This document shows, piece by piece, positions 5,318 to 33,074 of a stretch of DNA of 64,000 bases; within the stretch, counting starts at the first letter, position 1, and each line of letters opens with the position of its first letter. The DNA is from a virus: positions 130,557 through 194,556 of the IMG/VR virus record IMGVR_UViG_3300025881_000985; one strand, written 5' to 3'. A model generated the notes under the pieces. It did no database searches. It worked only from the letters and a program-made list of their open reading frames with translations, and had not been told where the DNA came from. The position numbers were made by a program, and so were the translations under genes.

Positions 5318-5322
5318 AACGG

Positions 5323-5351: not shown

Positions 5352-5380
5352 ACAAGTATAATAAGGAATTGGAGAAGCTC

Positions 5381-8763: not shown

Positions 8764-9568
8764 AGAAGTACTAATAAACGGACAAGAACGCAGAGATCGC
8801 ACCGGCGTTGGTACCATTGGTTTATTTGGTATGCAACAACGTTATGATCTAAACAAAGGTTTCCCAGCAGTAACTACAAAGAAACTTGCATGGAAAAGTG
8901 TAGTTAGCGAGTTGCTCTGGTTCTTAGAAGGCAGTGGCGACGAACGTAGACTAGCCGAAATATTACACAAAACAAGAGATGAAAACAAGAAAACTATCTG
9001 GTCTCCTAATGCAGAAGCAGACTACTGGTTACCTAATGCGGAATACAAAGGCGACCTTGGTAGAGTGTATGGTGTACAATGGCGTGAATGGGGAACAGAT
9101 CAAATTGAAAAACTAATTGAAGGTATTAAACAAGATCCATTTTCACGTAGACATATACTAAGTGCATGGAATGTAGGCGAGCTAGATCTAATGGCATTAC
9201 CACCATGTCATATTATGGCTCAGTTTTATGTTAGCACAGACAACAAATTAAGTTGTCAAATGTACCAACGAAGTTGCGACATGTTTCTTGGAGTACCATT
9301 TAACATTGCAAGTTATAGTCTACTCACACATATGATTGCCCAAGTATGCAATCTAAAAGTAGGCGAGTTTGTGCATACATTAGGCGATGCACATATATAT
9401 CTTAACCATGTCAATCAAGTTAAAGAACAACTTGCAAGAGAACCGTTGCCTTTACCTACACTTTGGCTAAATCCAGAAAAAAGACATATTGATCATTTTA
9501 CAATGGATGATATACGTTTGCAGAATTATCAAAGTCACGAAACAATTAAAGCGGAGATGGCAGTATGA
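8738..9568 (+). CDS. thyA: Thymidylate synthase
   Basis: DRTGVGT, LPPCH, YQRSCDMFLGVPFNIASY, GDAHIY. Start moved to ATG 8738. Confidence 0.95.
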   Translation: MKNYLNAIKEVLINGQERRDRTGVGTIGLFGMQQRYDLNKGFPAVTTKKLAWKSVVSELLWFLEGSGDERRLAEILHKTRDENKKTIWSPNAEADYWLPNAEYKGDLGRVYGVQWREWGTDQIEKLIEGIKQDPFSRRHILSAWNVGELDLMALPPCHIMAQFYVSTDNKLSCQMYQRSCDMFLGVPFNIASYSLLTHMIAQVCNLKVGEFVHTLGDAHIYLNHVNQVKEQLAREPLPLPTLWLNPEKRHIDHFTMDDIRLQNYQSHETIKAEMAV

Positions 9569-10572
9569 CCAGAGCATTAGTAACAGGCGGATTAGGACTT
9601 ATTGGTCATAATATAGTACAAGAACTTGTTAGTCAAAATATCCCTACAGCCATTGTTGACAACCTAACAAATTATAACAATGCAATTAGTATGAAAGAAT
9701 TAGGATATCTATTTGGTGAAAGACTTAAACTAGTACACGACCTGCCACCTAATCTTGTTAGTTTAAATTACCTACACAAAGACATTGAAACAAACGATTT
9801 TGAATCTTGTTTTAACTTTGTAAAACCAACAGTTTTGTATCATTTGGCTTGTCCTCCTAGACAAAAGATTGTTGGACTAAGTCCACAGTTCTGCGGTAAT
9901 ACAATGATTGGCGGATTGCTTAATACTTTAAAACACTGTGTCAAATACAATGTAGAAAGAATTGTTTATATTAGTTCTAGTATGGTATATGGAGACTTTG
10001 AAGATAATGTTACTGAAGATGCAGTACTAAATCCACAAGGTGAATACGGTATTTTAAAACTTGCTGGTGAACAATTGGTCAAAGACTATCACAGAAAGTA
10101 TGGACTAAATTATACTATCATTAGACCAAGTGCAGTTTATGGTCCGCTTGATTTAAGTGATAGAGTTATTAGTAAGTTTCTGTTAACTGCAATGGGAGGC
10201 GGAGAGCTTACTGTCAATGGTGAACACGAAACACTTGATTTTACATATGTTGGTGATGCCGCACAAGGTATTACGAGTGCCGGATTAAGCGAAGAAGCAG
10301 AAAATAAAACCTATAACATTACCAAGAGCCACAGTAAGACTTTATTAGCGGCCGCTGAACTAGCAGTTGAGATTGCTGGAAAAGGTACTATTAAGATCAA
10401 TGAAAAAGATGATGATTTTCCAAGTCGTGGAGCATTAGACATTACCGCGGCAAAACAAGACTTTGGGTTTGATCCCCAAGTTGATATTGAAGAAGGATTT
10501 GGCTTATATCATGAGTGGCTTTCAAATTCCGTTTACTGGAACAAAGCGGCAATATCAAAGTTTGCGAAGTGA
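9565..10572 (+). CDS. NAD-dependent NDP-sugar epimerase/dehydratase (extended SDR)
   Basis: GGLGLIG, SSSMVYG, YGILK, IRPSAVYGP, DFTYVGD. Confidence 0.9.
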   Translation: MTRALVTGGLGLIGHNIVQELVSQNIPTAIVDNLTNYNNAISMKELGYLFGERLKLVHDLPPNLVSLNYLHKDIETNDFESCFNFVKPTVLYHLACPPRQKIVGLSPQFCGNTMIGGLLNTLKHCVKYNVERIVYISSSMVYGDFEDNVTEDAVLNPQGEYGILKLAGEQLVKDYHRKYGLNYTIIRPSAVYGPLDLSDRVISKFLLTAMGGGELTVNGEHETLDFTYVGDAAQGITSAGLSEEAENKTYNITKSHSKTLLAAAELAVEIAGKGTIKINEKDDDFPSRGALDITAAKQDFGFDPQVDIEEGFGLYHEWLSNSVYWNKAAISKFAK

Positions 10573-11674
10573 GCTTCTTGATACTGCTGATAAAGTTTGG
10601 TCTACAGGACAACACCTAAACGGATACTACACAGAGACTTTTGAAAGTGTAATTGCTGAACGATGCAATCGCAAATATGCTATTGCTGTTAACAGCGGAA
10701 CACAGGCGTTGATATTCGCTATTAGATCTCTCAAGCTACCCTTTCGTAGCAAGATAGCAATACCAGGTTTAAGTTTTGTTGCAACTCTTAACAGTATAAT
10801 TGAAACTGGTTATATCCCACATTTAATTGATGTTGACAAAGATGGTCTAATAGATCTGACAACCGATGAAGATATTGAAAAAACCTATGATGCTTTGGTA
10901 TATGTTAACCTATATGGTAACATGGTTGATTATAGTAAAATTAAATTAATTACAGAATTTTTTGGACAAATTACAAAGTTACCTGTTATTGAAGATGCCG
11001 CTCAGAGTTTTGGATCCACGTTTCAAGGTAAACCAAGTGGTAGCTTTGGAGACATTAGTATATTAAGTTTTGATCCAATGAAAAACTTTAACAGTTATGG
11101 CAGTGGCGGAATGGTATTAACTGATGACATGGCTATTGCATCAAGTGTTAGAGACCTTGCTACCAATGGCAAAGAAAATAACTATTCTCACAGTGGAACC
11201 AACAGTCGTATGAGCGAACTGGATTGTGCTTGTATGTTAGTGAAGTTGGGCCACTTTGATAAATGGCAAGCACGCCGAAAGAAGATTGCAACTTACTGGA
11301 ATGATGAATTTAACAATCATATTAGAACACTTGTTGTACATGATGATGTTGAATCAAGTTATCACAAATATCCAATATTTGTTAATCCAAATGTAACCAG
11401 TAGAAATAGATTAAAGTATAACCTACAAGAGTTAGGAATTGCAACAAAAGTACACTACGATAAAGCTCTTGGCAACTATCAATCCTTTATTGAATGTGCT
11501 TATAGTATTTACGATGCCGACCTTAGAGCCGGAATAGAACACCAAGCCACACAAACCAACATGGCTGTAACTATAGCAAATAACCAATTGAGTTTACCTA
11601 TATATCCTGAACTAACTGATGCTGAAGTTGAATTTATTGCAGAACAAGTTAAAGATAATGCATCCAAGTACTAG
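10511..11674 (+). CDS. DegT/DnrJ/EryC1/StrS PLP-dependent sugar aminotransferase
   Basis: AVNSGT.AL, IEDAAQSFG, SFDPMKN (PLP lysine), GSGGMVLTDD, NSRMSEL. Start moved to ATG 10511. Confidence 0.9.
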   Translation: MSGFQIPFTGTKRQYQSLRSELLDTADKVWSTGQHLNGYYTETFESVIAERCNRKYAIAVNSGTQALIFAIRSLKLPFRSKIAIPGLSFVATLNSIIETGYIPHLIDVDKDGLIDLTTDEDIEKTYDALVYVNLYGNMVDYSKIKLITEFFGQITKLPVIEDAAQSFGSTFQGKPSGSFGDISILSFDPMKNFNSYGSGGMVLTDDMAIASSVRDLATNGKENNYSHSGTNSRMSELDCACMLVKLGHFDKWQARRKKIATYWNDEFNNHIRTLVVHDDVESSYHKYPIFVNPNVTSRNRLKYNLQELGIATKVHYDKALGNYQSFIECAYSIYDADLRAGIEHQATQTNMAVTIANNQLSLPIYPELTDAEVEFIAEQVKDNASKY

Positions 11675-12449
11675 AAAACTTGATAAGTTTCTTTACAGTA
11701 ACAAAGTACATGCTTCAGCATTTGAAAAAGGCTTGAACGGAGATATCCGTGACTTTAGAGGCCAAACCCTTGACTGGCTTCCAACGGATACCGAAAAGCT
11801 ATACCTAACAAATATTAAAAAGTTTCCTGAGTTTTTTGCAGACAAGGAATGGACACAACCAGGAAATATTACATATCATATCAATGCACACGGGTTTCGT
11901 GGAGAGTTCTATACTGAGCCAGATATAGTAGCACTAGGATGTAGTAACACTATGGGCATTGGGTTACCCGAGGATAAGATATGGTGCTACCAACTTGGTC
12001 AAAAATTAAATATGACTGTAACCAATTTAGGAGTTGGCGGAATTGGTACAGACAGTATATATAATATTGTTAAGTCAATGATATTATCAAAGATAGTAAA
12101 ACCTAAATTTGTTGCAATGCTTGTGCCACCAATTGGAAGACTTGAAATACGTACAAATCATCATGATGTTCAACAAGTGAACACTGCGTCAGATAGTGCT
12201 ACATTAATAGGTAAACATTGGTGGCTTAATGATGAGAATAGCACACTGTTTGATGAAAGAAATATTATGGCAATTTACTTTCTACTAGAAAGTTTAAATA
12301 TTCCAATTATACACTTAAACAGTAATCAACTCCTGCACCGGCAACACCCCAAGGGAGATCTTGCAAGAGACATGATGCATCCTGGTCCTGTATCACACAA
12401 CGGACTATCTCAACTTATGGCAAACCTAGTAGAAGCAAAACTAACTTGA
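11658..12449 (+). CDS. SGNH/GDSL hydrolase-like protein
   Basis: ALGCSNTMG (block I), NLGVGG (block II), DMMHPG (block V). Confidence 0.7.
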   Translation: MHPSTRKLDKFLYSNKVHASAFEKGLNGDIRDFRGQTLDWLPTDTEKLYLTNIKKFPEFFADKEWTQPGNITYHINAHGFRGEFYTEPDIVALGCSNTMGIGLPEDKIWCYQLGQKLNMTVTNLGVGGIGTDSIYNIVKSMILSKIVKPKFVAMLVPPIGRLEIRTNHHDVQQVNTASDSATLIGKHWWLNDENSTLFDERNIMAIYFLLESLNIPIIHLNSNQLLHRQHPKGDLARDMMHPGPVSHNGLSQLMANLVEAKLT

Positions 12450-15092
12450 CTCAAACTTTTCTTTGAGCCACGCCCAATCAAAACTCTTTTGTAGCTCTAT
12501 AGGATCACCATCTACTTCTTCATAATATCTAAGTGCATCACTTGCACCTTGTATACTATAAACACCATTCAAACTATCTCGACCTTTTGTTAGCCAAGAA
12601 GTAAGTCTAGCTTCATTTTCAATACTAGGGTTTATGTCATCAAACTGTTTCAGTTTCAATACTTCACGAAATGCTGTACGCCAAGTCATCCACGGGTCTG
12701 TATTGTAATGAGCAGTGCCGCTAAGAACTGGTACAACTTCATGTGGAGCACTCAGTGTAAAGTCCAGTCCTGGTTGGTTTGTGGCTAGTGTAAGACGCTT
12801 ATTATAAGCTATAACCCCCATGTGTCCGTATTCTAATCCGTTTACTGGATTACGTGCATTAAAAATATAGTGCTTTGCTTGTTGGAAATAGTCTGGTTGC
12901 CAAGTAAAATCAAAGTCTCGTTCTACTTCAATTTTAGCAAACACTGCAAAGAACCATTCAGTGTTTGATGCATGGGCCGCGGCTTGGTATGCTTTTACAC
13001 GACCATCAATACCTTCAATGTGATGTATTGTATTCTTATGTTCTAATGCTCCTGCTGGATCTTTTGTAATTGCTACATCTATTAGATGTGTGTACCAACG
13101 ATTTGCTTCAGTCTCGCCGTTACTGATAAAACATATATCCAATGGTCGTGGTATAAAATCAGAACGTCCCGGAGACTTTTTATTAATATAAGGAAAGTCA
13201 TATACCTGTTCAATTTGACGTTTACTAATATCACGAGGTATAACAGCCAAGCTATTGTCGCTGGTTAAACTTACAACCTCACGGTCTTTTTGCCTCCACA
13301 AACATATAGCACCATATACTTCGGAAGTGTAACGTATTGATGCCCCCATGTTAGGTAATAGATTATCTTGTTTCTGAAAAACGGCATATGGAAAATTGGG
13401 CCAAACATAATTGTTAATTGTATCAACCATGTTATCAGTGGTGTATTCAACAACAGGCATTGGCCATCTTTTTAGTTCTTGTTCTAATGTATAATTAATA
13501 ACGTTGAACCAATCCAGTATTTCTAAATCATACATCTGAGTTTTAAAACTCTCAACGTGTATATAAAAAGTATCTCCTCGTTTTTGTCCGTTACTAGGAA
13601 ATACGTGTATCATTTCGTTTTGCCAAGGCTCAGGTTGCCAACTAAAATCAAAACGAGCATAGTCACAAATACTGTTGATGATCCAAATGTATTCATGTCC
13701 TTCGTGGTTGTTAATAATTCTTTTGAATGTATCCAGATAGTTGTCAACAAAACGTGTAACAGTTATATTATTGTGTTGACTTTGCAGTTTGTCAAGTTGA
13801 ACTTGACTTTGTTCATTACCCCAATCAACATATACAATAGCATGTAGATCATCAGGTACAGTAACAGATTGTTCTTTAACAAAATTTAAATTTGGAAACT
13901 CCGTTATGGAGTTGGCCCATTGACTTGATCGTTGAAATTCAAACTTGTTAATTAAAAAAGTATCACTCCATTTTTGCCATTGGCTACCAAACACATGAGT
14001 CATATAACTTTGCCAACTCTCAGGACGCCAATCAAAATCAAATTCATCATATACATTTTCGCTACTAATAATCCAAAATCTATTGGTACTACTACGACTA
14101 ACACATCTGCGTACTGTTTCCAACATTGAGTTGGCGTAGCGAATCTTTTGCATTCCAGGGTACTTTTCTAGTAGTTTTTCGTACCTTGCCTTAGCTAAAC
14201 TATTGTTTTTATCTACGTAAAATACATCTATTTCTTTGAAGGTGCCAATGTCGTGTCCTGGAAAATAATCCATCAATTTAACTTCTGTAGCACCTTCAAC
14301 AGTGTACATCAATCCGCTTGATTGTATATCACCAATTGGAAAATGGTATATGTACGGAGGATCAAGTACATTGGGTTTCCATGTAAAGTCAACTGTTGAT
14401 TCATCAACATCGTCGGGTATTGTCCAACATTCTTTGCTTTCGTCTTGCGTACTTATAAAGTCTGCAATTTTAATTTGTTCACCCATTCCGTATGTAATGC
14501 CACCTGCACTTTGCCACTTAGTAGGAAAATGGTATGTGTATTCTGGATCTAATATGTTAGGATGCCAACTGGTATCAATTGACATGTCATTGGGAATATG
14601 CCAATTATCTAATACTGGAAATGCTGTTGCTATTTGTGCATCAACTAACTTAACTCCAGCAGTGCCAGAATACACAGGACCTCCTGCACTTTGGTGTTGT
14701 GTAGGAAAGTAATAACTGTAGTCAGGTTCATGTGGATCAGGATGCCAACTATAATCAAAATTTTCTGTATATTCAGTATTAATAAATTTTGATTTGTCTG
14801 ACAAACGTGTTACAGTTTGATCTGTGCAGAAATGGTATTGCATTTCTTGTATACGTTTACTCACAAGATATACTTCGCCATCACGTTGCCATTGGCTGGC
14901 CCAACAATGTACATACTTTTCCATCCAAGGCTCTGGAACCACATGAAAGTTAAAGTTTGAGTAGTCATTACCGCCATATAAATAGAAACAATACCTAGTA
15001 CGACTTAGTTTGATAGCTTCAGTTAAACTTGAAGCAGGCTTCTCAAACTCAAATAAACCAGGCTTAGGGCCAAAGTAAAAAACATCAAACAT
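12441..15092 (-). CDS. 883-aa multi-repeat glycosyltransferase-like protein
   Basis: C-terminal domain clearly paralogous to 29573..30505. Four repeats of a ..W....DFDF.W.P..W unit plus three short WHP/WKP repeats. Confidence 0.6.
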   Translation of the reverse strand: MFDVFYFGPKPGLFEFEKPASSLTEAIKLSRTRYCFYLYGGNDYSNFNFHVVPEPWMEKYVHCWASQWQRDGEVYLVSKRIQEMQYHFCTDQTVTRLSDKSKFINTEYTENFDYSWHPDPHEPDYSYYFPTQHQSAGGPVYSGTAGVKLVDAQIATAFPVLDNWHIPNDMSIDTSWHPNILDPEYTYHFPTKWQSAGGITYGMGEQIKIADFISTQDESKECWTIPDDVDESTVDFTWKPNVLDPPYIYHFPIGDIQSSGLMYTVEGATEVKLMDYFPGHDIGTFKEIDVFYVDKNNSLAKARYEKLLEKYPGMQKIRYANSMLETVRRCVSRSSTNRFWIISSENVYDEFDFDWRPESWQSYMTHVFGSQWQKWSDTFLINKFEFQRSSQWANSITEFPNLNFVKEQSVTVPDDLHAIVYVDWGNEQSQVQLDKLQSQHNNITVTRFVDNYLDTFKRIINNHEGHEYIWIINSICDYARFDFSWQPEPWQNEMIHVFPSNGQKRGDTFYIHVESFKTQMYDLEILDWFNVINYTLEQELKRWPMPVVEYTTDNMVDTINNYVWPNFPYAVFQKQDNLLPNMGASIRYTSEVYGAICLWRQKDREVVSLTSDNSLAVIPRDISKRQIEQVYDFPYINKKSPGRSDFIPRPLDICFISNGETEANRWYTHLIDVAITKDPAGALEHKNTIHHIEGIDGRVKAYQAAAHASNTEWFFAVFAKIEVERDFDFTWQPDYFQQAKHYIFNARNPVNGLEYGHMGVIAYNKRLTLATNQPGLDFTLSAPHEVVPVLSGTAHYNTDPWMTWRTAFREVLKLKQFDDINPSIENEARLTSWLTKGRDSLNGVYSIQGASDALRYYEEVDGDPIELQKSFDWAWLKEKFESS

Positions 15093-16173
15093 GTATAATA
15101 TTCACTCTCATTATGAAAACATCTTCGCGTTAGCAAACCAACATTGGCCCGAAGGTGTTGTGTTAGTATATCCGTTTCCTTTTGGTTCTAGCACTGTTGA
15201 AAGCCTCGAATGGTTAAACAGTGGCGACGATGGCCCTGTATTGTTTTGCTATGATCAAGAACCTCTTATTCCAGGTTACAATGATCCGTTATTTGATTAC
15301 GTTAGAGACTCATGGCCTAATAGACGTATAATATTACTTAACACTGAATACCACAGTGAGTCAAAAAACTATTTCAACGACAAGTACGGCTTTGAAGATT
15401 GCTATTACTTTTATCATGTATTTGCCGCACATGATTGGTTCCGCGGTTATCAATACTGTCCAGATATTATAGCACCAGTTGATCGAAAAGTCAAGAAGAA
15501 ATTTATTACATTTAACCGAATTACAGGTAATGCTAGAAGTTATCGTAGTTTGCACGTTGCTGATTTAAAACGCAACAATCTATTACAACACGGAAATATC
15601 AGTTATAGTGTTGATTGTCCAGAACACGGAAACAACATTAAACAACTTGATTGGGCAGAAGATACTTACAAGTATGATTTTACCTGGGCTAAAAACGAAC
15701 TAAAAGATTTAGAAGAGTTACGTATTGATACAGAATCATTGAGTCATATACCAAACGGAAGTATGGTACTTAGTGCAGTTAACCAATGCATGGAAAGTTT
15801 CTTGTTTGTTGTTACAGAGACTGAATTTTGGACTAACAAATGTCACTTAACAGAAAAGATATTCAAACCTATAATCAGCGAAATGCCATTTGTATTACTT
15901 GGTCCTCCGGGTAACTTGTTATACTTTAGAAGTCACGGATTTAAAACGTTCAATGACTGGTGGGACGAAAGTTACGATAATATAGTTGACCCTGTTGATC
16001 GTTTGTTGGCTGTTAATAAAGTTATTAAAGATATCTGTGCAATGCCACATAGTGAATTAGAATCTATGCTTAAAGATATGGCTCCTGCACTAAAGTCTAA
16101 TAGACAAAAGTTTGAAAGTCAATGTTTTCTTAATTCTATGTGGGACGAATTAAAACACAATCTATTTAAGTAA
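15091..16173 (+). CDS. Putative glycosyltransferase-like protein
   Basis: FITFNR...R, VVTET...LTEKIFKPI...PFVLLG, GFKTF..WDESYD. TEK motif recalls GT10-like enzymes. Family not certain. Confidence 0.45.
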   Translation: MYNIHSHYENIFALANQHWPEGVVLVYPFPFGSSTVESLEWLNSGDDGPVLFCYDQEPLIPGYNDPLFDYVRDSWPNRRIILLNTEYHSESKNYFNDKYGFEDCYYFYHVFAAHDWFRGYQYCPDIIAPVDRKVKKKFITFNRITGNARSYRSLHVADLKRNNLLQHGNISYSVDCPEHGNNIKQLDWAEDTYKYDFTWAKNELKDLEELRIDTESLSHIPNGSMVLSAVNQCMESFLFVVTETEFWTNKCHLTEKIFKPIISEMPFVLLGPPGNLLYFRSHGFKTFNDWWDESYDNIVDPVDRLLAVNKVIKDICAMPHSELESMLKDMAPALKSNRQKFESQCFLNSMWDELKHNLFK

Positions 16174-16659
16174 CTTCTTTGCTTTCTTTGTAGCCATATC
16201 CCATTTTAGTTTACTACATCGATCTTTGAATGTAATACCCATTAAATGATCAAACTCATGCAAGTAGCACCTGGCAGTATAACCAGTTAATGTTTCTGTT
16301 TGCAACTCAAGTTTTTCATTATAAAACTCAGCAATAACAGTTTTAGGTCTGGCAATCTTAACAAACACCATTGGAAAACTTAAACAACCTTCATAGTCTA
16401 CTACAACCTCATCATCAGTTGTTTCGTCAATACGTATTGTTGGATTGATACACAATGTACTATTTTCTTTGCTGTCGCCAATAACAAACAAACGGTGATC
16501 AATTCCAACTTGATTAGCACTTAAACCCATGCCTTCATGTTGTACCATCAAGTCTACCATTTCGTTTTTCATTTGCCCAGGATCAAATCCTGGGTTATCA
16601 ATATCCACTGCGGTTACTGCTTTCGCTAACCAAGGATCTGGTGCTAGTATTAATTCCAT
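16162..16659 (-). CDS. def: Peptide deformylase
   Basis: All three motifs: GMGLSANQVG, EGCLS, HEFDHL.G. Start moved to ATG 16659 (TAATG overlap). Confidence 0.93.
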   Translation of the reverse strand: MELILAPDPWLAKAVTAVDIDNPGFDPGQMKNEMVDLMVQHEGMGLSANQVGIDHRLFVIGDSKENSTLCINPTIRIDETTDDEVVVDYEGCLSFPMVFVKIARPKTVIAEFYNEKLELQTETLTGYTARCYLHEFDHLMGITFKDRCSKLKWDMATKKAKKLLK

Positions 16660-17078: not shown

Positions 17079-17090
17079 TTTATTGTCCTC

Positions 17091-19194: not shown

Positions 19195-19295
19195 TTATAG
19201 ATAAACGGATCCCGTTTGCGTAATTCTTTAAGTTTTTTGCGATATGCAATCTCTAATTTCACACGGTTAATTAAACTCTTAAACCATTTGATCAT
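19191..19295 (-). CDS. 34-aa basic micro-ORF, not in ORF track
   Basis: MIKWFKSLINRVKLEIAYRKKLKELRKRDPFIYK. AGGAG SD at 19303-19307. ATGA overlap with the next gene. Confidence 0.75.
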   Translation of the reverse strand: MIKWFKSLINRVKLEIAYRKKLKELRKRDPFIYK

Positions 19296-22407: not shown

Positions 22408-22408
22408 A

Positions 22409-25449: not shown

Positions 25450-26791
25450 TGTACCACTCCGCTAAGGTTGGAAACGTAGCGGTAAAGTCTTTACCTCTGC
25501 GTTGGTCGTATTGTGAATAAAATTGTTTAAAATCGTTGTGAAGTTTAGGCATTTCAAATGTTTCTCTATGTGGAGTTTTAACAACATCTAAGTAATCAAT
25601 TAAACGCTGTACATGATTAATTTCGTGTTCATGTAACATTGCATGGTTACGAAAATTAGATAACCAATCTTGTAATCTTTGCTTGTGATGTTCCCTAATC
25701 TCGTCAGGTAACACAAGAGGTGATTGGAAACTTGGAAAGCGTAAAATATTGAGTGTAAAGTTTGGAAAGTCTCTGCCAAACTTTGATTTCCATTCTAGCA
25801 TCCACGTTAAGAACTCAGGTAAACTTTCTAAGCATAATGCATTAATGGTATTCATTACATGCAATCCTCGTAGTTTACCACTTCGTATCAGTAGCTCTAC
25901 GTTTGCTGTCCATTGTTTCCATTCTAATCCATCACGTATATATTCGGCTTGTAGACCCATACTCTCGTTGCTGGTATATAAGTCTAATTCAAGATGTTCT
26001 GCCGCATCAAGCAATTTCTCAACTTTTTCGCTTTCAAATCCCAAGTTGCTGTTAATAGCAATTCGAGTTTTTGACTTACCTTTGTTTTCTTTAAACCAAT
26101 CAAACAGGTCCCATGTGTGACCGCTCATCAACGGCTCTCCGCCAGTGATACGTAATTCTTGTAATGTTTCGTGCAAGTCACTTTCCCACCATTTGAAAAA
26201 TGCTTCAACGTATGGGTTGGTTTCGGAATACTTGTACAAACTTGCTTCGTTGTGTTCATGTGTAAAGTGATTACGACCATCGCTTTCTAGACCGGCATAT
26301 GCTCCATTCTTTTTAATATCTTTAACCCATGTAGTACTGAACGCTGGGTTACAATAACTACATGCAAACTGACAAGTTCTATCAAAAGCAATTTCAAGTG
26401 TACGCAAGTTAACATCATCTTCCGGAGGTGTATTGTATGCATCTTGTAATAATTTGTCACTGTAGATTACACTTTTGTAAACTCTATCACTGATATTATC
26501 TCGTTTAATATCTTCAATCTTCCAGCAGTATTCGCAACCTTTGGGCCTTACACCTGTGAGCATATCAGCACGATCTTGTTTCTTTTGTGAACTGTTGTGC
26601 AATGCTCTTGGATTAAATTTAACTTCATCAACATCAACTTTGTGTGCTGGTGGATGATGACAACTTGTAGTCATACCACTGCCTAACCATATAGTAGCAT
26701 TATACCATTTGGCTCCACAAAAACTTGCACTCTTTGGATCAAGAATTCTTTTTCTAAATTCTAAATCTGTTTCATTAACTAACTTAGGCAA
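25436..26791 (-). CDS. Radical SAM protein with N-terminal Cys/His domain (type B)
   Basis: CQFACSYC, GGEP. N-terminal CGAKW...SCHHPP...CEYCW. Confidence 0.9.
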   Translation of the reverse strand: MPKLVNETDLEFRKRILDPKSASFCGAKWYNATIWLGSGMTTSCHHPPAHKVDVDEVKFNPRALHNSSQKKQDRADMLTGVRPKGCEYCWKIEDIKRDNISDRVYKSVIYSDKLLQDAYNTPPEDDVNLRTLEIAFDRTCQFACSYCNPAFSTTWVKDIKKNGAYAGLESDGRNHFTHEHNEASLYKYSETNPYVEAFFKWWESDLHETLQELRITGGEPLMSGHTWDLFDWFKENKGKSKTRIAINSNLGFESEKVEKLLDAAEHLELDLYTSNESMGLQAEYIRDGLEWKQWTANVELLIRSGKLRGLHVMNTINALCLESLPEFLTWMLEWKSKFGRDFPNFTLNILRFPSFQSPLVLPDEIREHHKQRLQDWLSNFRNHAMLHEHEINHVQRLIDYLDVVKTPHRETFEMPKLHNDFKQFYSQYDQRRGKDFTATFPTLAEWYNGLK

Positions 26792-27875
26792 AGTGTTCCT
26801 CCATTTCGGATATATAGTTTACTATCTTTGTGCCACGATGTCTATCTCTAATAGTAATCATATCTAAAAATTCTTTCCAGTTTTCTTCATTGGAGTTATC
26901 CAATGTATTGATAATTCCTTCTAAACCATTTTGTGCTTCGTAGTCAACAGCACGAAGTCTATCTTGTGCAAGTTGAGCTAATTCTTTTGGCAAACATACA
27001 GGTGCCAGATAATGAGGCTTTGTTAATATATCAAACTGTACAAAAAGCTCTTCCTGTTCAGCCCACTCTAATAATCTATCAATATATAATACATTTAAAT
27101 TTTGTACGACTGTGTTTACAAAAATATTAGCATCGGGTATTTGACGCATCAACTCTATATTATTAGTTATAACATTCCATTTACTTGGATATCTTATGTA
27201 ATGATTAAGTTCTGCATATCCGTCAATACTTAAACACATCTTAATGTCGTGTGCTGACAATACATCAACCCAACTTTGATCAAATTTAGTTCCATTTGTT
27301 GCAATCATTATTTCTTTACGTTGTGTCAATGATGAAAGAATATCGCGAACCCAAGGCAACATAAACGGTTCGCCTCCTCTTAGAATAAAACTATCACAGT
27401 GTTCCATTATTTCAAGTATCTTGTAATTGTCTTTTTCATTCCAATCGTATTTCTTCTGATCCCATACCTTGTCAAACAGTTTGTTTTCTTCAACTAAAAA
27501 TTGACTACTAGATTGCGGATTACACATCAAGCATTTCAAGTTACATAAATTTGATAACTGTATTTCCCAATCCAGTGGCTGTTCTGTTTGTTCTGTTATG
27601 TCACTCCAACGTTCATTGCTGTACTGTCGAAAACTTTTTGATCCTTGCTCCTCTTGTTTATAACAACGAACACATTCATCACTGTGTTCATTGTTCTTTA
27701 TACGCTTTCTTAGATCATTGAGATAATCGCTATTCCACCACTCGTCAACAGAGTGTGTTTTCATATTAAAATCTGTTGTAACAAAACTACGACAACAAGG
27801 CATAAAACGTCCTTGGGTGTCTACTAGACTATGCATAAACGGACGCACACAAAATTTATCGTTATCTTTGAGCAT
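26784..27875 (-). CDS. Radical SAM protein with N-terminal SPASM/twitch-like domain (type A)
   Basis: CNLKCLMC, GGEP. N-terminal CVRPF...PCC...CVRC. Confidence 0.9.
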   Translation of the reverse strand: MLKDNDKFCVRPFMHSLVDTQGRFMPCCRSFVTTDFNMKTHSVDEWWNSDYLNDLRKRIKNNEHSDECVRCYKQEEQGSKSFRQYSNERWSDITEQTEQPLDWEIQLSNLCNLKCLMCNPQSSSQFLVEENKLFDKVWDQKKYDWNEKDNYKILEIMEHCDSFILRGGEPFMLPWVRDILSSLTQRKEIMIATNGTKFDQSWVDVLSAHDIKMCLSIDGYAELNHYIRYPSKWNVITNNIELMRQIPDANIFVNTVVQNLNVLYIDRLLEWAEQEELFVQFDILTKPHYLAPVCLPKELAQLAQDRLRAVDYEAQNGLEGIINTLDNSNEENWKEFLDMITIRDRHRGTKIVNYISEMEEHFA

Positions 27876-29268
27876 AATATCTACACTGTTTCCAAAACTC
27901 TTCCATCTCAGGAAATGTTGCTAAAAAGTTTGTGTCTCTGCGTTTATCGTGTTCAGTAAAGAACCTATAAAAGTCTGCACGATTGTTTTGCAAATATTGT
28001 TCAGGTAATTCATCTCCTTTACGCATCCACGCTATATCTCTACGCATACGCTGTACTTCATAATCTTTAAATCCGTGGAATGGATCGTCTTTGGTTTCTA
28101 AGTTTCGTTCCATCCAATTTGCAACTTCTTCTAATTTTTCAGCATAAGGCCATGGCAATATCTGTAGACTTTGCCAAGTTGGTTGACGCAACAATGGTGT
28201 ATCAAACCATATACGCTGATAAGTTGAACTAAACGCTTTACGTAAATCAAGTATCCATTCTAACTGCTTTTTAATTCCACTCACACTCAAGTTATTCATT
28301 GTAATAATAAATGTTAAACTATTACGCTCGGGCACCTCTCCTAAATACCTATATACATTATGATGCATACGAGTCCATTGAAGTCCGTGCCTAATATATT
28401 CTGCTTGTTCTGGCACACCAGTGTCAAGGCTAACATATTGCATAAAATGTTCTATTTGTGTTTTACATAACTTTTTTACGTAACCAATATACTTTTCAAA
28501 CAGTTTATCTTCAACACTGAAGTTGCTTGTTACATTTAGATGTAACTCTGGATTTGGTAATGCTAGTACATAATCAAACACACGATATGTATTGTTATCC
28601 ATCAACGGTTCACCACCAGTCATACGGAAATGTTTTAGGTGTGGGTATAACGAGGGCCACCATTCCCAAAACGCATCAACATATGGATTTTCTTCTCTGT
28701 GTGGAATTGGTCTATTACGCCCAACAAAATGTTCAGGTGCATTATGCGGAACACTAGTAGGATATGCTCCTACTTTTTTAGTTTCCTTCATCCATGTGCT
28801 ACTAAATTGTGGACTGCAATACGAACAGGCCAAGTTACATGCATTATTAAAATTAACTTCAACGTAACTAGGTTTCCAGTCTTCGTCACCAGTACTGTTT
28901 TTAATTGCTTCGTAATCACTGGCCGCCCAAGGTTCTCCACTGCGATAATGTCTATCGCTTAGGTTACCTGAATCCTCAATGTTCCAGCAATACTGACACT
29001 CTGGAGGACGTTCACCTTTGAGCATCATTTTACGCTGTTCTTTTTTGTGTTCTGTATTGTGCAATGCATTAGGATCGAGTTTTACTTTCTCGCGATCCAT
29101 TTGATGCAACGGAGGATGATAGCAACTATTATTCAGCCCTGTTGGTAAATGAAAACTTACTTGTTTCCATTTTGCTAAACACAAGCCGTGGCCAAGATTA
29201 TCTTTCATAAACTCGGCACTAGCCATAAACTTACTTTTATTACCTACGGATTCGTCACCCTTGTTCAT
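27862..29268 (-). CDS. Radical SAM protein with N-terminal Cys/His domain (type B)
   Basis: CNLACSYC, GGEP. N-terminal CLAKW...SCYHPP...CQYCW. Confidence 0.9.
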   Translation of the reverse strand: MNKGDESVGNKSKFMASAEFMKDNLGHGLCLAKWKQVSFHLPTGLNNSCYHPPLHQMDREKVKLDPNALHNTEHKKEQRKMMLKGERPPECQYCWNIEDSGNLSDRHYRSGEPWAASDYEAIKNSTGDEDWKPSYVEVNFNNACNLACSYCSPQFSSTWMKETKKVGAYPTSVPHNAPEHFVGRNRPIPHREENPYVDAFWEWWPSLYPHLKHFRMTGGEPLMDNNTYRVFDYVLALPNPELHLNVTSNFSVEDKLFEKYIGYVKKLCKTQIEHFMQYVSLDTGVPEQAEYIRHGLQWTRMHHNVYRYLGEVPERNSLTFIITMNNLSVSGIKKQLEWILDLRKAFSSTYQRIWFDTPLLRQPTWQSLQILPWPYAEKLEEVANWMERNLETKDDPFHGFKDYEVQRMRRDIAWMRKGDELPEQYLQNNRADFYRFFTEHDKRRDTNFLATFPEMEEFWKQCRYYAQR

Positions 29269-29571
29269 TTACCATCCCATCATAAATCGAGTTTCTTCAG
29301 GTACCATTTCTATTGTAAACGGTGGATCAAATGTTGTGTTAACAATAACACTCAACACTTCTGGTGCATACCCTGCTTGTTGTATATCACTAACAATTTG
29401 ATCTGCAAACGGACAGAATGCACTTGTTAATGTGTGCGTGATTGTAACTTCGTATTCGCTTTGATCTATCGCAATATCGTATATCAATCCTAAATCATAT
29501 ACATTACAACTTATTTCTGGATCAAAAACTTTACGTAAGTTTTCAATAACAATATCTTTATCTATTGCCAT
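29269..29571 (-). CDS. sufT: DUF59/SufT (MIP18-like) Fe-S cluster assembly protein
   Basis: LRKVFDPEI..NVYDLGLIYDI, TLTSAFCP, FDPPFT.EM. Confidence 0.88.
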   Translation of the reverse strand: MAIDKDIVIENLRKVFDPEISCNVYDLGLIYDIAIDQSEYEVTITHTLTSAFCPFADQIVSDIQQAGYAPEVLSVIVNTTFDPPFTIEMVPEETRFMMGW

Positions 29572-29572
29572 T

Positions 29573-30505
29573 TTACCAACCCTCTATTCTGCGAATAACA
29601 TCAATTTCTTTTGTCATTAGCTCTAAGTTTTTATGACCAGTTGCATAGTGATATTTAAAGAAAGCACTTTGTTCTGCATCAAGTTCAACAATATTTAATG
29701 CTAATCTATTATTAAGTAATTCTGTAATAGTTTCCATGTCATTATGATTTCCTATTGCAGTAACTTCGAGGTATTCTTCATGTAAGTATGCAAGTTTATC
29801 AAAGTCTTGTACTTGAGTAAAATCCCAATCCGACAACATTGTTTTGTATGTGCCGTACCGAGCTCCGTTGATTGCTTCTTCTCCGTGTTCAACATCACGA
29901 CCAATTGTTTGCCAAATCTGCAAGTGATCTAGATTACGTTTCTTTGCGTTATCATCGAACTCTTGCAGACTTGGCTTGCGTCCACGATCTAAGCACATTT
30001 TAACACCTTCGCGAAAACCAGCCCTCCAGGCATGATATTGACTTCCGTTAGGATATGTAGTGCTATAGCAGTTGTGCATAGGGTAGTAAGTTTCCTCGAA
30101 ACAAAACTCTACAGCCGTTTCGTGACTCCCGTCACTTGCTTCGTGGGTTCGCATATTGTTAACAAAGCCTTTGCTCCAGACACTCATGCCACCATTACCA
30201 TACATTAATCCATTAATGTGGTTACGTGCTTTCCATCTAAAAGCAGAGTCTTCGCCAGGCGTTTCAATTTGTAAATTAAAAAACTCTGGATCTGGAATAT
30301 TATCGCCATCAATTAAAACAAAAAAGTTAGTGTCACTTGCATCAGCACACGCCTTATGAGCCGCATCTGATCCTTTAACGTTATCTACTCGTTTTGCCCA
30401 TGGAACAATATTCTGTATTTGTAGCCAGAATTCTTCTTTCTGAGGTTCGTCATAACTTAAATAGATGCAGTCTAAATCTGCAACATCAGTGATTTTCAAA
30501 TCCAT
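29573..30505 (-). CDS. GT-A-like glycosyltransferase
   Basis: IYLSYDEP, VKGSDAAHKACA, FVLIDGDN (DxD), YGNGG, AWRAGFREGVKM. Confidence 0.6.
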   Translation of the reverse strand: MDLKITDVADLDCIYLSYDEPQKEEFWLQIQNIVPWAKRVDNVKGSDAAHKACADASDTNFFVLIDGDNIPDPEFFNLQIETPGEDSAFRWKARNHINGLMYGNGGMSVWSKGFVNNMRTHEASDGSHETAVEFCFEETYYPMHNCYSTTYPNGSQYHAWRAGFREGVKMCLDRGRKPSLQEFDDNAKKRNLDHLQIWQTIGRDVEHGEEAINGARYGTYKTMLSDWDFTQVQDFDKLAYLHEEYLEVTAIGNHNDMETITELLNNRLALNIVELDAEQSAFFKYHYATGHKNLELMTKEIDVIRRIEGW

Positions 30506-30773
30506 AGTATTGCCCTTCTCCGGAGTTAATTAATATACCAGCATGATTCTTAGCAGACTTATACGAACTGATTTTACATTTTTGTAATAACATTTGATCA
30601 GGATTATCTGTTGCACGAGTAAGTTTTCCATTGACTACTCTTAGGCGTGTATACTCAGGTCTATCGTACATTGCTTTATTGATACGAATAAATCTACCAG
30701 GAACCTCTTCATTGACTGTTATCCTAATAGGCATTCCTGCCTCATCATAGTATAACCTGTAGATAAAATCCAT
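30486..30773 (-). CDS. Hypothetical protein (95 aa)
   Basis: Start moved to ATG 30773 (TAATG overlap with the micro-ORF). Confidence 0.6.
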   Translation of the reverse strand: MDFIYRLYYDEAGMPIRITVNEEVPGRFIRINKAMYDRPEYTRLRVVNGKLTRATDNPDQMLLQKCKISSYKSAKNHAGILINSGEGQYYGFENH

Positions 30774-30898
30774 TATTTTAAAATCCATAGCAGAGTTAAT
30801 CCCACTGTAAGGAATGCAAGTAAATGCCATATCTTAAGTTTAGGATACACAACGTGGCCTTTGTTTTCGTCTTGTAAATCATCCCATATGTTTTTCAT
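30773..30898 (-). CDS. 41-aa single-TM micro-ORF, not in ORF track
   Basis: MKNIWDDLQDENKGHVVYPKLKIWHLLAFLTVGLTLLWILK. AGGAG at 30912-30916. Stop overlaps the next ATG. Confidence 0.55.
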   Translation of the reverse strand: MKNIWDDLQDENKGHVVYPKLKIWHLLAFLTVGLTLLWILK

Positions 30899-31733
30899 AG
30901 TCTTGTATTAACTCCTTAACTTTAAATTTTTTATCATGATAATGTACTGGTTGAAGTTGTTGTACGTTATTAATACGCAATTCATTTAATTCATTTTCAA
31001 CCAGCACACTATCAAATATTTGTGTACTCTCAGCCCAACCTTGTATACCCGGTTTCATATGTGCAAATGTAAAGAAATCTAAGCTAGGAACATAAGGCTC
31101 AATTTCTAACATTGCTGATACAATACTGTAAACAACATCAGTTGTAGGATTTTCATCACGTATATTAGTAAGTGCAAAATCACGCACTTCAGTCCAGTTA
31201 CGATATACGTCACGAGCTAGGGTAAAAAACTCTGTTGCTTCGCGACTGTACCGGAAATACATCATACCATTATATACATCAGGTAAATTATTATCACTGA
31301 ATAACTTACGATAGCGATTGCCTGTGTATAAACGTTGTTGCAGATCTACTACTCCATGACTTAAAACTACATTTCTTAATCTAAGTGCTGGCCACCAATG
31401 GGAGATATTCCTTGGAAACAGCAAATCAGATTCAAGTTTGATGGTCTCTTTAAACGGCGTTAACCAGAATGATTGCCATTCGTTGGCCAACTTCCATTCA
31501 TCATTTTCAGCTTCATCAATTTCTAGGGTAATAACGTAGTCGAACGCACGGCGTTGAGTGTCTGTTATTTGAGACTTAGTAAACTCGTCAACTATGACAG
31601 CATATAGACTGTCGGGCTGAGTTACCTTTATATTTAGCGCCTGAAGGTAGGCCAGCTCTAAATAATCCACATCATTTGTGTTCTGTGCAATAGTTAGAAA
31701 TCCTCTTTGAGCACAATGTGGTTGTTTACGCAT
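30879..31733 (-). CDS. GT8-like glycosyltransferase (DxD altered to ESD)
   Basis: Paralog of 31726..32472: GFLTIA.N...DY, TPFKETIKLESDLL, HYHDK. Confidence 0.55.
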   Translation of the reverse strand: MRKQPHCAQRGFLTIAQNTNDVDYLELAYLQALNIKVTQPDSLYAVIVDEFTKSQITDTQRRAFDYVITLEIDEAENDEWKLANEWQSFWLTPFKETIKLESDLLFPRNISHWWPALRLRNVVLSHGVVDLQQRLYTGNRYRKLFSDNNLPDVYNGMMYFRYSREATEFFTLARDVYRNWTEVRDFALTNIRDENPTTDVVYSIVSAMLEIEPYVPSLDFFTFAHMKPGIQGWAESTQIFDSVLVENELNELRINNVQQLQPVHYHDKKFKVKELIQDYEKHMG

Positions 31734-32472
31734 TTAATACCTCTTCAAACTCTATACTTTGTAGATATTGTTTGTCGTGGAAATGCAAAGATATGTATGG
31801 TAAAACATATGCTCCGTCGTCTGTAATAACTTTGATCCAATCGTCTATAATAATTTGGTTAACTTTGCCTTGAATAGTTTGTATACTCCACGGTATTTTA
31901 GTAGAAGTATCTTCAACATAACCATTTACTAACCTATCTGCAATAGTAAAAGCGGCATCATTGCGAAAATTACTTGTCTGTAATTTATACAATGCACGAT
32001 AATAAGGATAGTTGTTTTGTATCATTTTAGCAAACTCAAATAAATCCTTTGACTTCTGTGTCTTATTAAATACAATTACTGTAGCCCATAACATAGGACC
32101 AATCGATAACTGTCCAAGAGTATCAACCAAGTTTTCTTTGTTAACATAAGTGTTCTTGTCTACTATAGCATAATCTTGTACAGTGTCAAGTACTTTGAGT
32201 AAATTACTATCAAATATTAGATAATCGCCGTCAACTAATATAGTTTGATCATATGGAGATAAGTCGTATGCTTCACACCTTCCGGTATTTTGCCATTCGA
32301 CTATTTCATTGTCCACTCTTCTTTTATTACTTGACTTTGTACCACTTACAATAGTTGTTGGCAATCCAAGATACTTTTTAATTAGTTTAGCATTAATTTT
32401 TGCAATCTTTATATAATCAATTTCTTTTGTATTAGTTGCAAATATTAATACACCTTTAGACTTTTCTGACAC
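31726..32472 (-). CDS. GT8-like glycosyltransferase
   Basis: GVLIFA.N...DY, SPYDQTILVDGDYL (DxD), LWATVIVF, HFHDK. Confidence 0.6.
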   Translation of the reverse strand: MSEKSKGVLIFATNTKEIDYIKIAKINAKLIKKYLGLPTTIVSGTKSSNKRRVDNEIVEWQNTGRCEAYDLSPYDQTILVDGDYLIFDSNLLKVLDTVQDYAIVDKNTYVNKENLVDTLGQLSIGPMLWATVIVFNKTQKSKDLFEFAKMIQNNYPYYRALYKLQTSNFRNDAAFTIADRLVNGYVEDTSTKIPWSIQTIQGKVNQIIIDDWIKVITDDGAYVLPYISLHFHDKQYLQSIEFEEVLNA

Positions 32473-32761
32473 GTTTTAGTTCCTGGTGTTGAGTATGCCA
32501 ATCATTCATTACTGCTTGGTAACGTTGATTGGCTAACTCTAATAATTCATAACGTTTAATAGCAATAGGATTATTATACGTATCTTCGAGGAACATGTCT
32601 TCGTCGTTCCAGGTTGACAAAAAAGAAATTAGTTCAGGTGTGATATAAAACAGTCCACCATTATAGGTTACATGTAACTCTGTAACCATTTTTTCTCTAA
32701 GTGCTTTTTTATTTGTTTGGAATTTAGTAGCTGACTTAACACGTTCTACTATATCAGTCAT
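32456..32761 (-). CDS. Hypothetical protein (101 aa)
   Basis: ATG one nt after the acpP stop. Confidence 0.7.
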   Translation of the reverse strand: MTDIVERVKSATKFQTNKKALREKMVTELHVTYNGGLFYITPELISFLSTWNDEDMFLEDTYNNPIAIKRYELLELANQRYQAVMNDWHTQHQELKRVRKV

Positions 32762-32762
32762 A

Positions 32763-33017
32763 TTATTTTCCTTGAACTTTTCTTACATTCTCTATAAAGG
32801 TAATTGCATCCTCTACGGTATGAAAATTTTCAGCATCGCTATCATCTATTTCAATCTGAAATTCTTCTTCAAATGCCATAGCCAACTCAATGGTATCCAG
32901 GCTATCGGCCCCCAGATCATCAACAAAGTCTGAATTTAAATATATATTTTGTTCTTCAACACCTAGGTGTTCTTCTAAGATATTGATTATTCTAGGTAAA
33001 GTGTCTTCGTAAACCAT
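32763..33017 (-). CDS. acpP: Acyl carrier protein
   Basis: FVDDLGADSLDTIELAMAFEEEF.IEI.D with phosphopantetheine Ser. Acidic, 84 aa, AGGAG SD. Confidence 0.95.
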   Translation of the reverse strand: MVYEDTLPRIINILEEHLGVEEQNIYLNSDFVDDLGADSLDTIELAMAFEEEFQIEIDDSDAENFHTVEDAITFIENVRKVQGK

Positions 33018-33045: not shown

Positions 33046-33074
33046 AGTATATAACAAAAAACCCACTCTGTCAA
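33046..33074 (-). promoter_or_regulatory. sigma70 promoter for the acpP-led operon
   Basis: TTGACA (33074-33069)-17 bp-TATACT (33051-33046). Confidence 0.75.

Follow-up and report, generated by a model that had tools for sequence, protein, structure and literature searches.

A conserved jumbo-phage operon of N-terminal-twitch radical SAM enzymes with a carbamoyltransferase and a micro-protein: a possible glycan-tailoring pathway

Introduction

What does a bacteriophage make with six radical S-adenosylmethionine (SAM) enzymes, an O-carbamoyltransferase and a set of sugar-active proteins encoded side by side? The question is raised by a gene cluster at positions 9565–33017 of the window analysed here, that is, of the whole 64,000-nucleotide stretch formed by bases 130557–194556 of IMGVR_UViG_3300025881_000985, a linear 194,556-bp IMG/VR viral contig, 55% complete by CheckV. 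A first-pass annotation, made from the sequence alone, had described a phage-borne cluster for a biosynthesis that involves sugar, radical SAM and carbamoyl chemistry; this description holds, as the families are recognized by hidden Markov models (HMMs) and a syntenic core recurs in 10 relatives. The answer that we favour, at somewhat better than an even chance, is a soluble, self-contained cytoplasmic sugar or glycan-tailoring pathway of a jumbo myovirus.

The enzyme classes and virus-encoded glycosylation as such are already known; an array of at least five N-terminal-twitch radical SAM enzymes with a carbamoyltransferase/micro-protein pair is without counterpart in the literature searched. 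Likewise, no characterized phage pathway of such composition was found in that literature, in line with what the first-pass annotation had stated.

Results

Gene content and synteny

The listing of open reading frames (ORFs) gives 26 genes in 9565–33017, most of them overlapping or abutting, close to the 25 or so tightly coupled genes of the first-pass annotation (Table 1). Scans of the cluster proteins against Pfam, NCBIfam and PHROG firmly assign a short-chain dehydrogenase/reductase (SDR) of the epimerase family, a DegT aminotransferase, a NodU/TobZ-type carbamoyltransferase, six radical SAM enzymes, a SufT-like protein (by PF01883) and an acyl carrier protein (ACP), all of them expected, and in addition a peptide deformylase. 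The latter and a conserved 34-amino-acid (aa) ORF had been absent from the earlier list. Three SGNH-like proteins, about five glycosyltransferase (GT)-like proteins and a small nucleotidyltransferase-like protein, also expected, are present with weak matches only, and no cluster protein matched Pfam families beyond those listed. The 2-oxoglutarate-Fe oxygenase proposed at 22409–22918 goes back to an HxD...H pattern seen by eye; no family matches this protein at E up to 10, and the assignment is not retained.

The same gene order is found in 10 related IMG/VR contigs. With variable genes in brackets, it starts with fibre genes, g307, the terminator/promoter, (ACP), g101, two GT8-like genes, (g114), the DxD protein and (SufT); continues with radical SAM genes 6, (5), 4, 3 and 2, (g169), radical SAM 1 and g362; and ends with (SGNH), the micro-protein, SGNH, the carbamoyltransferase, (nucleotidyltransferase-like), (deformylase), g360 and the 883-aa protein, followed by DegT, SDR and ThyA. 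In four of five related records, DegT is found 1–3 kb past the end of the fetched cluster locus, and ThyA follows DegT in a relative that is 97% complete. ACP, the SufT-like protein, radical SAM 5, the 169-aa protein and the deformylase are accessory, being seen only in the closest relative. Since the gene order recurs in 10 related contigs, the cluster is not a chance assembly, and the random co-occurrence that the first-pass annotation had set as a possible refutation is replaced by a conserved core. The cluster enzymes are 61–86% identical between phages, as compared to approximately 37–73% for the baseplate wedge protein gp6 in the same records. Searched by megablast against cultured phages, the 23-kb block gave no match.

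The replicon belongs to an uncultured freshwater phage, a jumbo myovirus of roughly 340 kb: gp6 (54372–57794) is 33–36% identical to that of Atu_ph07, Phosso, SCTP-2 and GAP32/Rak2-like jumbo myoviruses, and the 97%-complete operon-bearing relative has 338.5 kb. Close copies of the operon (radical SAM 1 at 64–75% identity) also occur in lake metagenome-assembled genomes (MAGs) labelled with six unrelated taxa (loci L016–L022); these are most likely phage contigs mis-binned into bacterial MAGs. Hence, the MAGs labelled Haliscomenobacter, Lishizhenia, Polynucleobacter, Chitinophagaceae, Legionellales and Saccharibacteria were not used as host assignments.

Radical SAM enzymes

All six radical SAM enzymes of the cluster (21109–29268) match the NCBIfam family NF033640 (N_Twi_rSAM) at 281–406 bits, the cut-off being 170. 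Their alignment shows an invariant CX3CX2C motif (C156/C160/C163) and four invariant cysteines N-terminal to it (C42/C61/C102/C105). The Pfam SPASM match falls at residues 9–105 approximately, ahead of Radical_SAM, hence the twitch domain is N-terminal. Radical SAM 4 and 6 form a subtype with an SC-H motif. The six paralogues are 22–30% identical to each other and 47–90% identical to their own orthologues in relatives; because the mutual identity is low and the orthologue identity high, they are old, functionally distinct paralogues. A seventh, solitary NF033640 gene lies outside the window beside a ClpP-like gene (G000:C1:39073–40113, plus strand; 268 bits, measured over G000:C1:39076–39996).

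The family is very large. A profile search for NF033640-type proteins yields 33,352 clusters at E ≤ 0.001 and 7,123 clusters (50% identity) at E ≤ 1e-30, and includes numerous fusions of two or three modules; radical SAM 3 alone has more than 7,600 homologues at E ≤ 1e-10. The atlas clusters closest to the enzymes of the operon are labelled 95–100% viral. The identical radical SAM 3 protein occurs in 67 indexed blocks of a public assembly collection; 22 contigs that carry it were read. The phage enzymes share with the catalogue entry a score above the cut-off and the auxiliary Cys domain N-terminal to CX3CX2C; phage-operon arrays of five to six distinct orthogroups are not described in the literature searched. 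Apart from NF033640, most NCBIfam matches of radical SAM 2 and 5 are peptide or cofactor maturases.

Bacterial loci of the family

In bacteria NF033640 is rare. Leaving the query MAG aside, two of 400 genomes exceed the cut-off in the phylum of G008 (MAG labelled Polynucleobacter), and three of 400, plus one just below it, in the phylum of G007 (MAG labelled Haliscomenobacter). The most informative locus is on contig 19 of genome G109, a genuine chromosome piece with DnaE (2e-292) and AccA (1e-139). It carries rmlC (5e-58), rmlD (6e-101), wzm (4e-11) and wzt with its C-terminal domain (4e-70, residues 26–402). Here, wzt runs without a stop into an NF033640 module, forming a single 854-aa ORF (L032:8579–11143, minus strand); next come three more NF033640 genes, two methyltransferase genes, the first for a TylF-type O-methyltransferase, and the gene for a WbsX glycosyltransferase. 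Judged by its genes, the layout is that of an ATP-binding cassette (ABC) transporter-dependent O-polysaccharide locus, and tandem NF033640 genes in such a locus support a sugar or glycan substrate.

Other contexts were seen as well: one NF033640 member stands beside GT2 and SDR genes in a possibly prophage-like region; a UDP-glucose dehydrogenase gene lies approximately 4 kb downstream of an array of NF033640-type enzymes in a metagenome contig; and a Bacteroidota chromosome encodes a carbamoyltransferase about 2 kb from two sub-cut-off NF033640 matches. Assignment of a 1063-aa neighbour in locus L036 as a GT42/Maf-like transferase was dropped, as it had no PDB sequence match.

Carbamoyltransferase and the micro-protein

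The carbamoyltransferase contains both domains of its class, Carbam_trans_N (Kae1-like, 138 bits) and Carbam_trans_C (YrdC-like, 169 bits; cut-offs 24 and 27, respectively), and is 57–81% identical to its counterparts in relatives. The 34-aa ORF MIKWFKSLINRVKLEIAYRKKLKELRKRDPFIYK is encoded in seven related contigs, with its last 11 residues (...LRKRDPFIYK) invariant, and one public assembly annotates it as a gene. It is always directly upstream of the SGNH/carbamoyltransferase genes, in the seven contigs as well as in the cultured Ralstonia phage RsoM2USA, which encodes a 36-aa version ending in RKQDPFIYK (L015:14018–14128). The latter phage has a minimal module consisting of a radical SAM 4 orthologue (54% identity), SGNH, the DPFIYK peptide, SGNH and a carbamoyltransferase (45%).

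Three DPFIYK peptides matched no family, DUF5989 (PF19451) included, in hmmscan to E 10, where very short queries are easily filtered out. Complex prediction for the carbamoyltransferase with the DPFIYK peptide scored 0.11, which counts neither for nor against binding. Another cultured phage, Vibrio phage K566 (255 kb; L014, 161.5–168.3 kb), has four N-terminal-twitch radical SAM genes among hypotheticals, and no carbamoyltransferase homologue in the 25 kb examined.

Sugar, GT-like and other enzymes

The SDR has the YxxxK motif and a GalE-like SSSMVYG, and lacks the Asp–Glu pair of 4,6-dehydratases. Of the NCBIfam entries, dTDP-glucose 4,6-dehydratase matches it best, with 109 bits where the cut-off is 365; by its motifs, the SDR would resemble an epimerase or oxidoreductase, not a 4,6-dehydratase. 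In the DegT protein the lysine for pyridoxal 5'-phosphate (PLP) is present, and the PseC-like (173 bits) and LegC-like (149 bits) matches are both below cut-off. The deformylase shows GxGxAANQ-like, EGCLS and HExxH motifs.

None of the GT-like proteins matches a Pfam GT family above cut-off, DxD-like motifs being visible in sequence. The 310-aa DxD protein has 74% mean column identity in the alignment; its AlphaFold model (pLDDT 70) gives nothing at E ≤ 0.001 in Foldseek against PDB, and residues 4–153 reach Z 6–7 to nucleotidyltransferases and GT-A enzymes, tied. The C-terminal domain of the 883-aa protein is homologous to the DxD protein (hhalign 97.3%, E 2.4e-11); the full-length protein has orthologues in relatives and no Pfam, NCBIfam or PHROG match. 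The g362 gene belongs to the core; numerous residues of its product are invariant, and no sequence family matches it. The model of this protein has no significant Foldseek match, cyclophilins appearing at Z of about 6 and TM 0.35–0.41, and bears a weak resemblance to a cyclophilin-like barrel into which a four-helix bundle is inserted. Profiles of g362, the 310-aa protein, g248 and g360 produced nothing significant against PDB sequences, and g101 had no family match in the library scans. Two paralogues of g360 are encoded elsewhere in the contig; further sugar genes are seen at approximately 27–30 kb of the contig, namely a g360 paralogue and an ORF that by eye is UDP-glucose-dehydrogenase-like.

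Hydropathy in 19-residue windows yields no plausible transmembrane helix among the cluster proteins; the sole window over 1.6 on the Kyte–Doolittle scale, in radical SAM 1, is marginal (1.66). All cluster proteins thus appear soluble. Membrane parts of lipid-linked O-antigen or capsule synthesis (initiating transferase, Wzx/Wzy, Wzm/Wzt) were found neither by family scans nor by hydropathy among the cluster proteins, and, because these have no plausible membrane segment, no lipid-linked surface-polysaccharide route is encoded.

Expression unit

The junction of g307 and the ACP gene contains a GC-rich hairpin, which overlaps a TTGACA-17-TATACT box at 33074–33046. Patterns of this type occur eight times in the window, with 1.4 expected, and relatives have the hairpin and/or a similar promoter-like box at the same junction. 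The region 2663–5368 (plus strand) has three strong promoters of the sigma-70-like type (GGTTGAC-N17-TATAAT or TATACT), situated in gaps upstream of three genes; these code for an ATPase (phrog_1297), a phrog_1314 protein and an alpha/beta hydrolase resembling dienelactone hydrolase (5369–6238).

The T4-type late motif TATAAATA has two matches against approximately eight expected, and was not used. The motif CATAAATA is not enriched overall (6 vs. 6.8 expected); five of the six matches are intergenic or in the unannotated region 37192–37466, and four are directly upstream of minus-strand genes. It precedes structural genes; inside the operon there is a single match, within a coding region. The operon adjoins the fibre module, yet, by these motifs, is probably not a late transcript. 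Adjacency to tail genes, stated in the first-pass annotation, does not imply co-expression with them, as the terminator and a sigma-70-like early-type promoter intervene.

ThyA and possible targets

The ThyA encoded after dihydrofolate reductase (DHFR) has the dUMP-specifying Asn177 in DMFLGVPFNIASY (reads GVPFNIASY), the Cys–His pair and a C-terminus of the thymidylate synthase (TS) type. It is the single TS-family gene of the contig, and the 97%-complete relative also has only one. A phage carbamoyltransferase is known to make 5-carbamoyloxymethyl-cytosine, and travels with a TS homologue, a dCMP hydroxymethylase, that has Asp at Escherichia coli position 177 (PMC8670742), where the ThyA studied here has Asn. 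Carbamoyltransferases on unmodified contigs are flanked in the same study by, e.g., glycosyltransferases (group 1) or tRNA threonylcarbamoyltransferase-domain genes, not TS homologues. Neighbourhoods of GT-A and epimerase genes with ThyS or 5mYOX glycosylate DNA (bioRxiv 10.1101/2023.12.21.572611). PF12851 (Tet/JBP) has no match in G000 or G001, although the family is silent in control genomes too. The canonical ThyA argues against pathways via carbamoylated 5-hydroxymethylcytosine (5hmC) or 5-hydroxymethyl glycans on DNA, while a new chemical handle would still fit. Virion, host envelope and DNA had all been named as candidate targets; the envelope is weakened by the lack of a membrane protein or exporter, and 5hmC-type DNA modification by the canonical ThyA.

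Neighbouring genes

The genes to the right of the cluster encode gp5-, gp25- and gp6-like baseplate proteins, a 4413-aa protein and several fibre proteins; to the left are genes behind sigma-70-like promoters, as well as DHFR and ThyA. The 4413-aa protein is encoded by a single ORF (41114–54355, minus strand), with the baseplate wedge gene on one side and the fibre genes on the other. The tail-fibre protein at 38597–40405 (minus strand) has two long collagen-like Gly-X-Y tracts, which explain a local GC spike (0.475 vs. approximately 0.36), and shares its C-terminal part with two other fibre genes. Glycosylation of collagen-type hydroxylysine on this fibre was considered and dropped, as the Gly-X-Y repeats have no Lys. 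At the other end of the window, 359–1387 (minus strand) encodes a DctP-type tripartite ATP-independent periplasmic (TRAP) solute-binding protein (PF03480, 2e-33) with no transporter partner nearby and with CATAAATA twice upstream.

Table 1. Features of the cluster, in window coordinates
Feature	Position	Strand	Basis
SDR NAD-dependent epimerase/dehydratase-family enzyme	9565–10572	+	PF01370 1e-36
DegT/DnrJ/EryC1-type PLP sugar aminotransferase	10463–11674 (longest ORF; start probably downstream)	+	PF01041 6e-74
SGNH/GDSL-like (weak)	11619–12449	+	NF047474 GDSL_LA_2486 E 1.8e-4, far below cut-off
883-aa multi-domain protein, Trp/Pro-rich F-x-W-x-P repeats	12441–15092	-	C-terminal GT-A-like domain
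Conserved 360-aa protein (g360), GT10-like lead	15091–16173	+	Atlas feature score 0.81 to GT10 clusters
Peptide deformylase, accessory	16162–16677	-	PF01327 3e-36; TIGR00079 104 bits vs. cut-off 104
Small cytidylyl/adenylyltransferase-like, degenerate HxGH (GRFQPWDPGH)	16659–17078	-	NadR-like 6e-5; phrog_10255 2e-8
NodU/CmcH/TobZ-type O-carbamoyltransferase	17091–18575	-	PF16861 1e-49; PF02543 5.5e-40
SGNH/GDSL-like (DUF6071)	18538–19194	-	PF19547 1e-6; PF13472 (Lipase_GDSL_2) 1.5e-4
34-aa basic micro-protein, end RKRDPFIYK	19191–19295	-	ORF; translationally coupled to neighbours
SGNH-like, GDS block I motif, only some relatives	19279–20061	-	DUF6071 E 0.014; synteny
Conserved 362-aa protein (g362)	20039–21127	-	Alignment; model pLDDT 76
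N-terminal-twitch radical SAM 1, core	21109–22407	-	NF033640 299 bits; 69–86% identity in relatives
169-aa accessory protein (g169)	22409–22918	-	No family match at E up to 10; only in L002
N-terminal-twitch radical SAM 2, core	22908–24131	-	NF033640 351 bits
N-terminal-twitch radical SAM 3, core	24124–25449	-	NF033640 406 bits
N-terminal-twitch radical SAM 4, core, SC-H subtype	25436–26791	-	NF033640 307 bits
N-terminal-twitch radical SAM 5, accessory	26784–27875	-	NF033640 281 bits; only in closest relative
N-terminal-twitch radical SAM 6, core, SC-H subtype	27862–29268	-	NF033640 319 bits
SufT/DUF59-like Fe-S assembly protein, accessory	29269–29571	-	PF01883 4e-11; TIGR02945 82 bits, below cut-off
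310-aa protein (DxD protein), IDGDN motif	29573–30505	-	GT-A/nucleotidyltransferase-fold N-terminal domain in model
114-aa protein (g114), variably present	30486–30830	-	ORF, synteny
GT8-like (glycogenin-like) GT-A protein	30879–31733	-	Profile vs. PDB: glycogenin E 0.03
GT8-like paralogue, DxD-type motif VDGDY	31726–32472	-	hhalign 98.8%, E 5.5e-17, to 30879–31733
Conserved 101-aa helical protein (g101), first core gene of operon	32456–32761	-	Alignment; no family match
Acyl carrier protein, DSL serine, accessory	32763–33017	-	PF00550 4e-14; NF002148 96 bits, above cut-off
Sigma-70-like operon promoter TTGACA-17-TATACT	33046–33074	-	Matches early-type promoters at 3986, 5323
GC-rich hairpin with A and T runs, intrinsic terminator ending tail-fibre operon	33057–33084	.	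Sequence; hairpin in L002, L003, L009

Discussion

A possible glycan-tailoring pathway

In the pathway that we favour, transcription of the operon would start early or in the middle phase at a sigma-70-like promoter of its own. A nucleoside diphosphate (NDP)-amino sugar would come from the SDR and DegT enzymes, whose genes are neighbours of folA–thyA, and the GT-A-like proteins (two GT8-like proteins, the DxD protein, the 883-aa protein and perhaps the GT10-like g360) would attach sugars to an intracellular acceptor. The five core radical SAM enzymes and the sixth would each make a different hydrogen-abstraction edit on the sugar, candidate edits being epimerisation, oxidation and deoxygenation; the SufT-like factor may help to load their two [4Fe-4S] clusters. 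SGNH proteins may add or remove acyl groups, with ACP as a lineage-specific acyl donor, and the NodU/TobZ-type enzyme together with the DPFIYK micro-protein would O-carbamoylate a hydroxyl. As the acceptor we tentatively favour a phage protein, a fibre or other virion component, because the cluster encodes neither a flippase nor a polymerase or exporter, and because the operon is fixed beside fibre genes across the whole clade and conserved like a core gene; this is the least certain step, its likelihood falling well short of even. A still broader proposal seems doubtful to us, namely that NF033640 is a new class of carbohydrate-editing radical SAM enzymes, and that phages use them in fixed arrays of at least five, each member making its own radical edit on a glycan that is then carbamoylated with the help of the micro-protein and carried on the virion.

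Several points weigh against this pathway. The SDR, without the dehydratase Asp–Glu pair, would leave the source of a keto-sugar for DegT unexplained. The GT assignments rest on weak matches (E 0.03, Z of about 7, atlas score 0.81), and the GT-A-like C-terminal domain of the 883-aa protein lacks a DxD motif. Searches of the literature brought up no study of NF033640, nor any reaction, substrate or structure for it, and the family has no member with a known product, acceptor or activity. Generally, twitch/SPASM enzymes commonly act on peptides, and among the genes of the operon are one for a conserved peptide and one for a cyclophilin-like protein. The support from bacteria is drawn mainly from a single locus of a single genome (G109). 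Finally, the early-type promoter tempers the choice of a virion protein as acceptor: with this promoter and the terminator standing between the operon and the late fibre genes, adjacency does not mean co-expression.

Alternative explanations

Some of these points would suit a pathway resembling that of peptides made by the ribosome and modified after translation (RiPPs), where the 34-aa protein ending in RKRDPFIYK is a substrate or scaffold whose tail is cross-linked or epimerised by the radical SAM enzymes and decorated by the carbamoyltransferase and GT-like proteins, as MftF acts on mycofactocin. The invariance of the last 11 residues in seven contigs, the retention of DPFIYK in RsoM2USA, the constant position of the gene within a radical SAM/SGNH/carbamoyltransferase block, the maturase matches of radical SAM 2 and 5 and the weak cyclophilin-like model of g362 all fit such a pathway. 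We nevertheless consider it unlikely: the micro-protein tracks the carbamoyltransferase, not the radical SAM array (in L011 it is directly before the carbamoyltransferase), and is conserved over its whole length, unlike a leader-plus-core precursor; the O-antigen-type locus that holds the bacterial arrays has no peptide of the PFIY type in its vicinity; and the Pfam, NCBIfam and PHROG scans gave no peptidase or RiPP recognition element (RRE)/PqqD-type family, no structure-based RRE search having been made. DNA hypermodification, i.e., a sugar or carbamoyl adduct built on bases by the GT-like proteins, carbamoyltransferase and radical SAM enzymes to evade restriction, has precedents in the phage 5hmC carbamoyltransferase and in DNA glycosylation by GT-A and epimerase neighbourhoods, and is in agreement with the neighbouring thyA, SDR epimerase-family and GT-like genes, the early-type promoter and enzymes as conserved as a universal substrate would demand. 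It is made quite improbable by the canonical ThyA following DHFR, by the single TS-family gene in both the contig and the 97%-complete relative, by the unmodified contigs whose carbamoyltransferases are flanked by glycosyltransferase-type genes and, weakly, given the silent controls, by the lack of a Tet/JBP match.

Of the same low probability is a change of host glycans, in which host nucleotide sugars or surface polysaccharide would be altered, e.g., for a superinfection block, via host export. The O-antigen-type export locus that houses bacterial relatives of the radical SAM enzymes points this way, and an early-type promoter fits host takeover, but neither a membrane protein nor an initiating phosphoglycosyltransferase, flippase or ABC exporter is predicted in the cluster, and conservation of the enzymes exceeds that of structural proteins among phages with strongly diverged fibres, which is a poor fit to host-specific surface chemistry. 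A free small molecule of the aminoglycoside or nucleoside-antibiotic type, acting as a toxin, signal or anti-defence metabolite, would fit the apparent solubility of all enzymes, and aminotransferases, twitch radical SAM enzymes, carbamoyltransferases and ACPs do recur in such pathways. However, no cyclitol synthase, resistance gene or exporter is seen in the cluster, ACP is present only in the closest relative, and the presence of several GT-like proteins and of a repeat protein with multiple domains points to a polymer or a macromolecule as acceptor; we regard this explanation as very unlikely. The aminoglycoside analogy of the first-pass annotation is not supported, since the radical SAM enzymes are N-terminal-twitch NF033640 members, not BtrN-like, and scans of 9565–33017 yielded no inosose-synthase-type family.

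Comparison with known systems

With BtrN-type enzymes the phage proteins have in common a radical SAM core and one auxiliary [4Fe-4S] twitch, which makes a sugar substrate plausible; the twitch is C-terminal there and N-terminal here, and neither a BtrN-type match nor another aminoglycoside core enzyme is present. The carbamoyltransferase has the same two-domain architecture as TobZ, NodU, CmcH and the phage 5hmC enzyme (PMC8670742), but differs from the latter in its setting, with a canonical ThyA and with SGNH proteins, a radical SAM enzyme and the PFIYK micro-protein as partners. For O-antigen loci with rml genes, Wzm/Wzt and chain-end methyltransferases, the parallel is the NF033640 tandem of G109, placed between wzt and the O-methyltransferase and glycosyltransferase genes, which supports a common role in tailoring sugars; the phage operon has no Wzm/Wzt, rml genes or membrane proteins, and its enzymes are 22–28% identical to the bacterial ones.

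Viruses with glycosylation systems of their own include chloroviruses (capsid glycans), Mimivirus (fibril sugars, with DegT-type and SDR enzymes) and mycobacteriophages (virion O-glycosylation). The operon would share with these systems soluble, virus-encoded sugar-nucleotide enzymes and GT-A-type transferases near structural genes, and action in the cytoplasm without a host lipid-linked export route. To our knowledge, none of them has radical SAM enzymes, a NodU-type carbamoyltransferase or a DPFIYK micro-protein.

Implications

A very large radical SAM family, for which no reaction was found, here makes up a phage operon that is more strongly constrained than a baseplate protein. The cultured phage RsoM2USA with its minimal module and the bacterial O-antigen-type locus with the Wzt–radical SAM fusion offer experimental entry points. 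The chemistry, once solved, may provide new radical reactions on sugars and a possible layer of decoration of phage particles or DNA that bears on host range and defence evasion; if the broader proposal on NF033640 is true, abundant freshwater and marine jumbo phages would carry a chemically unprecedented surface glycan.

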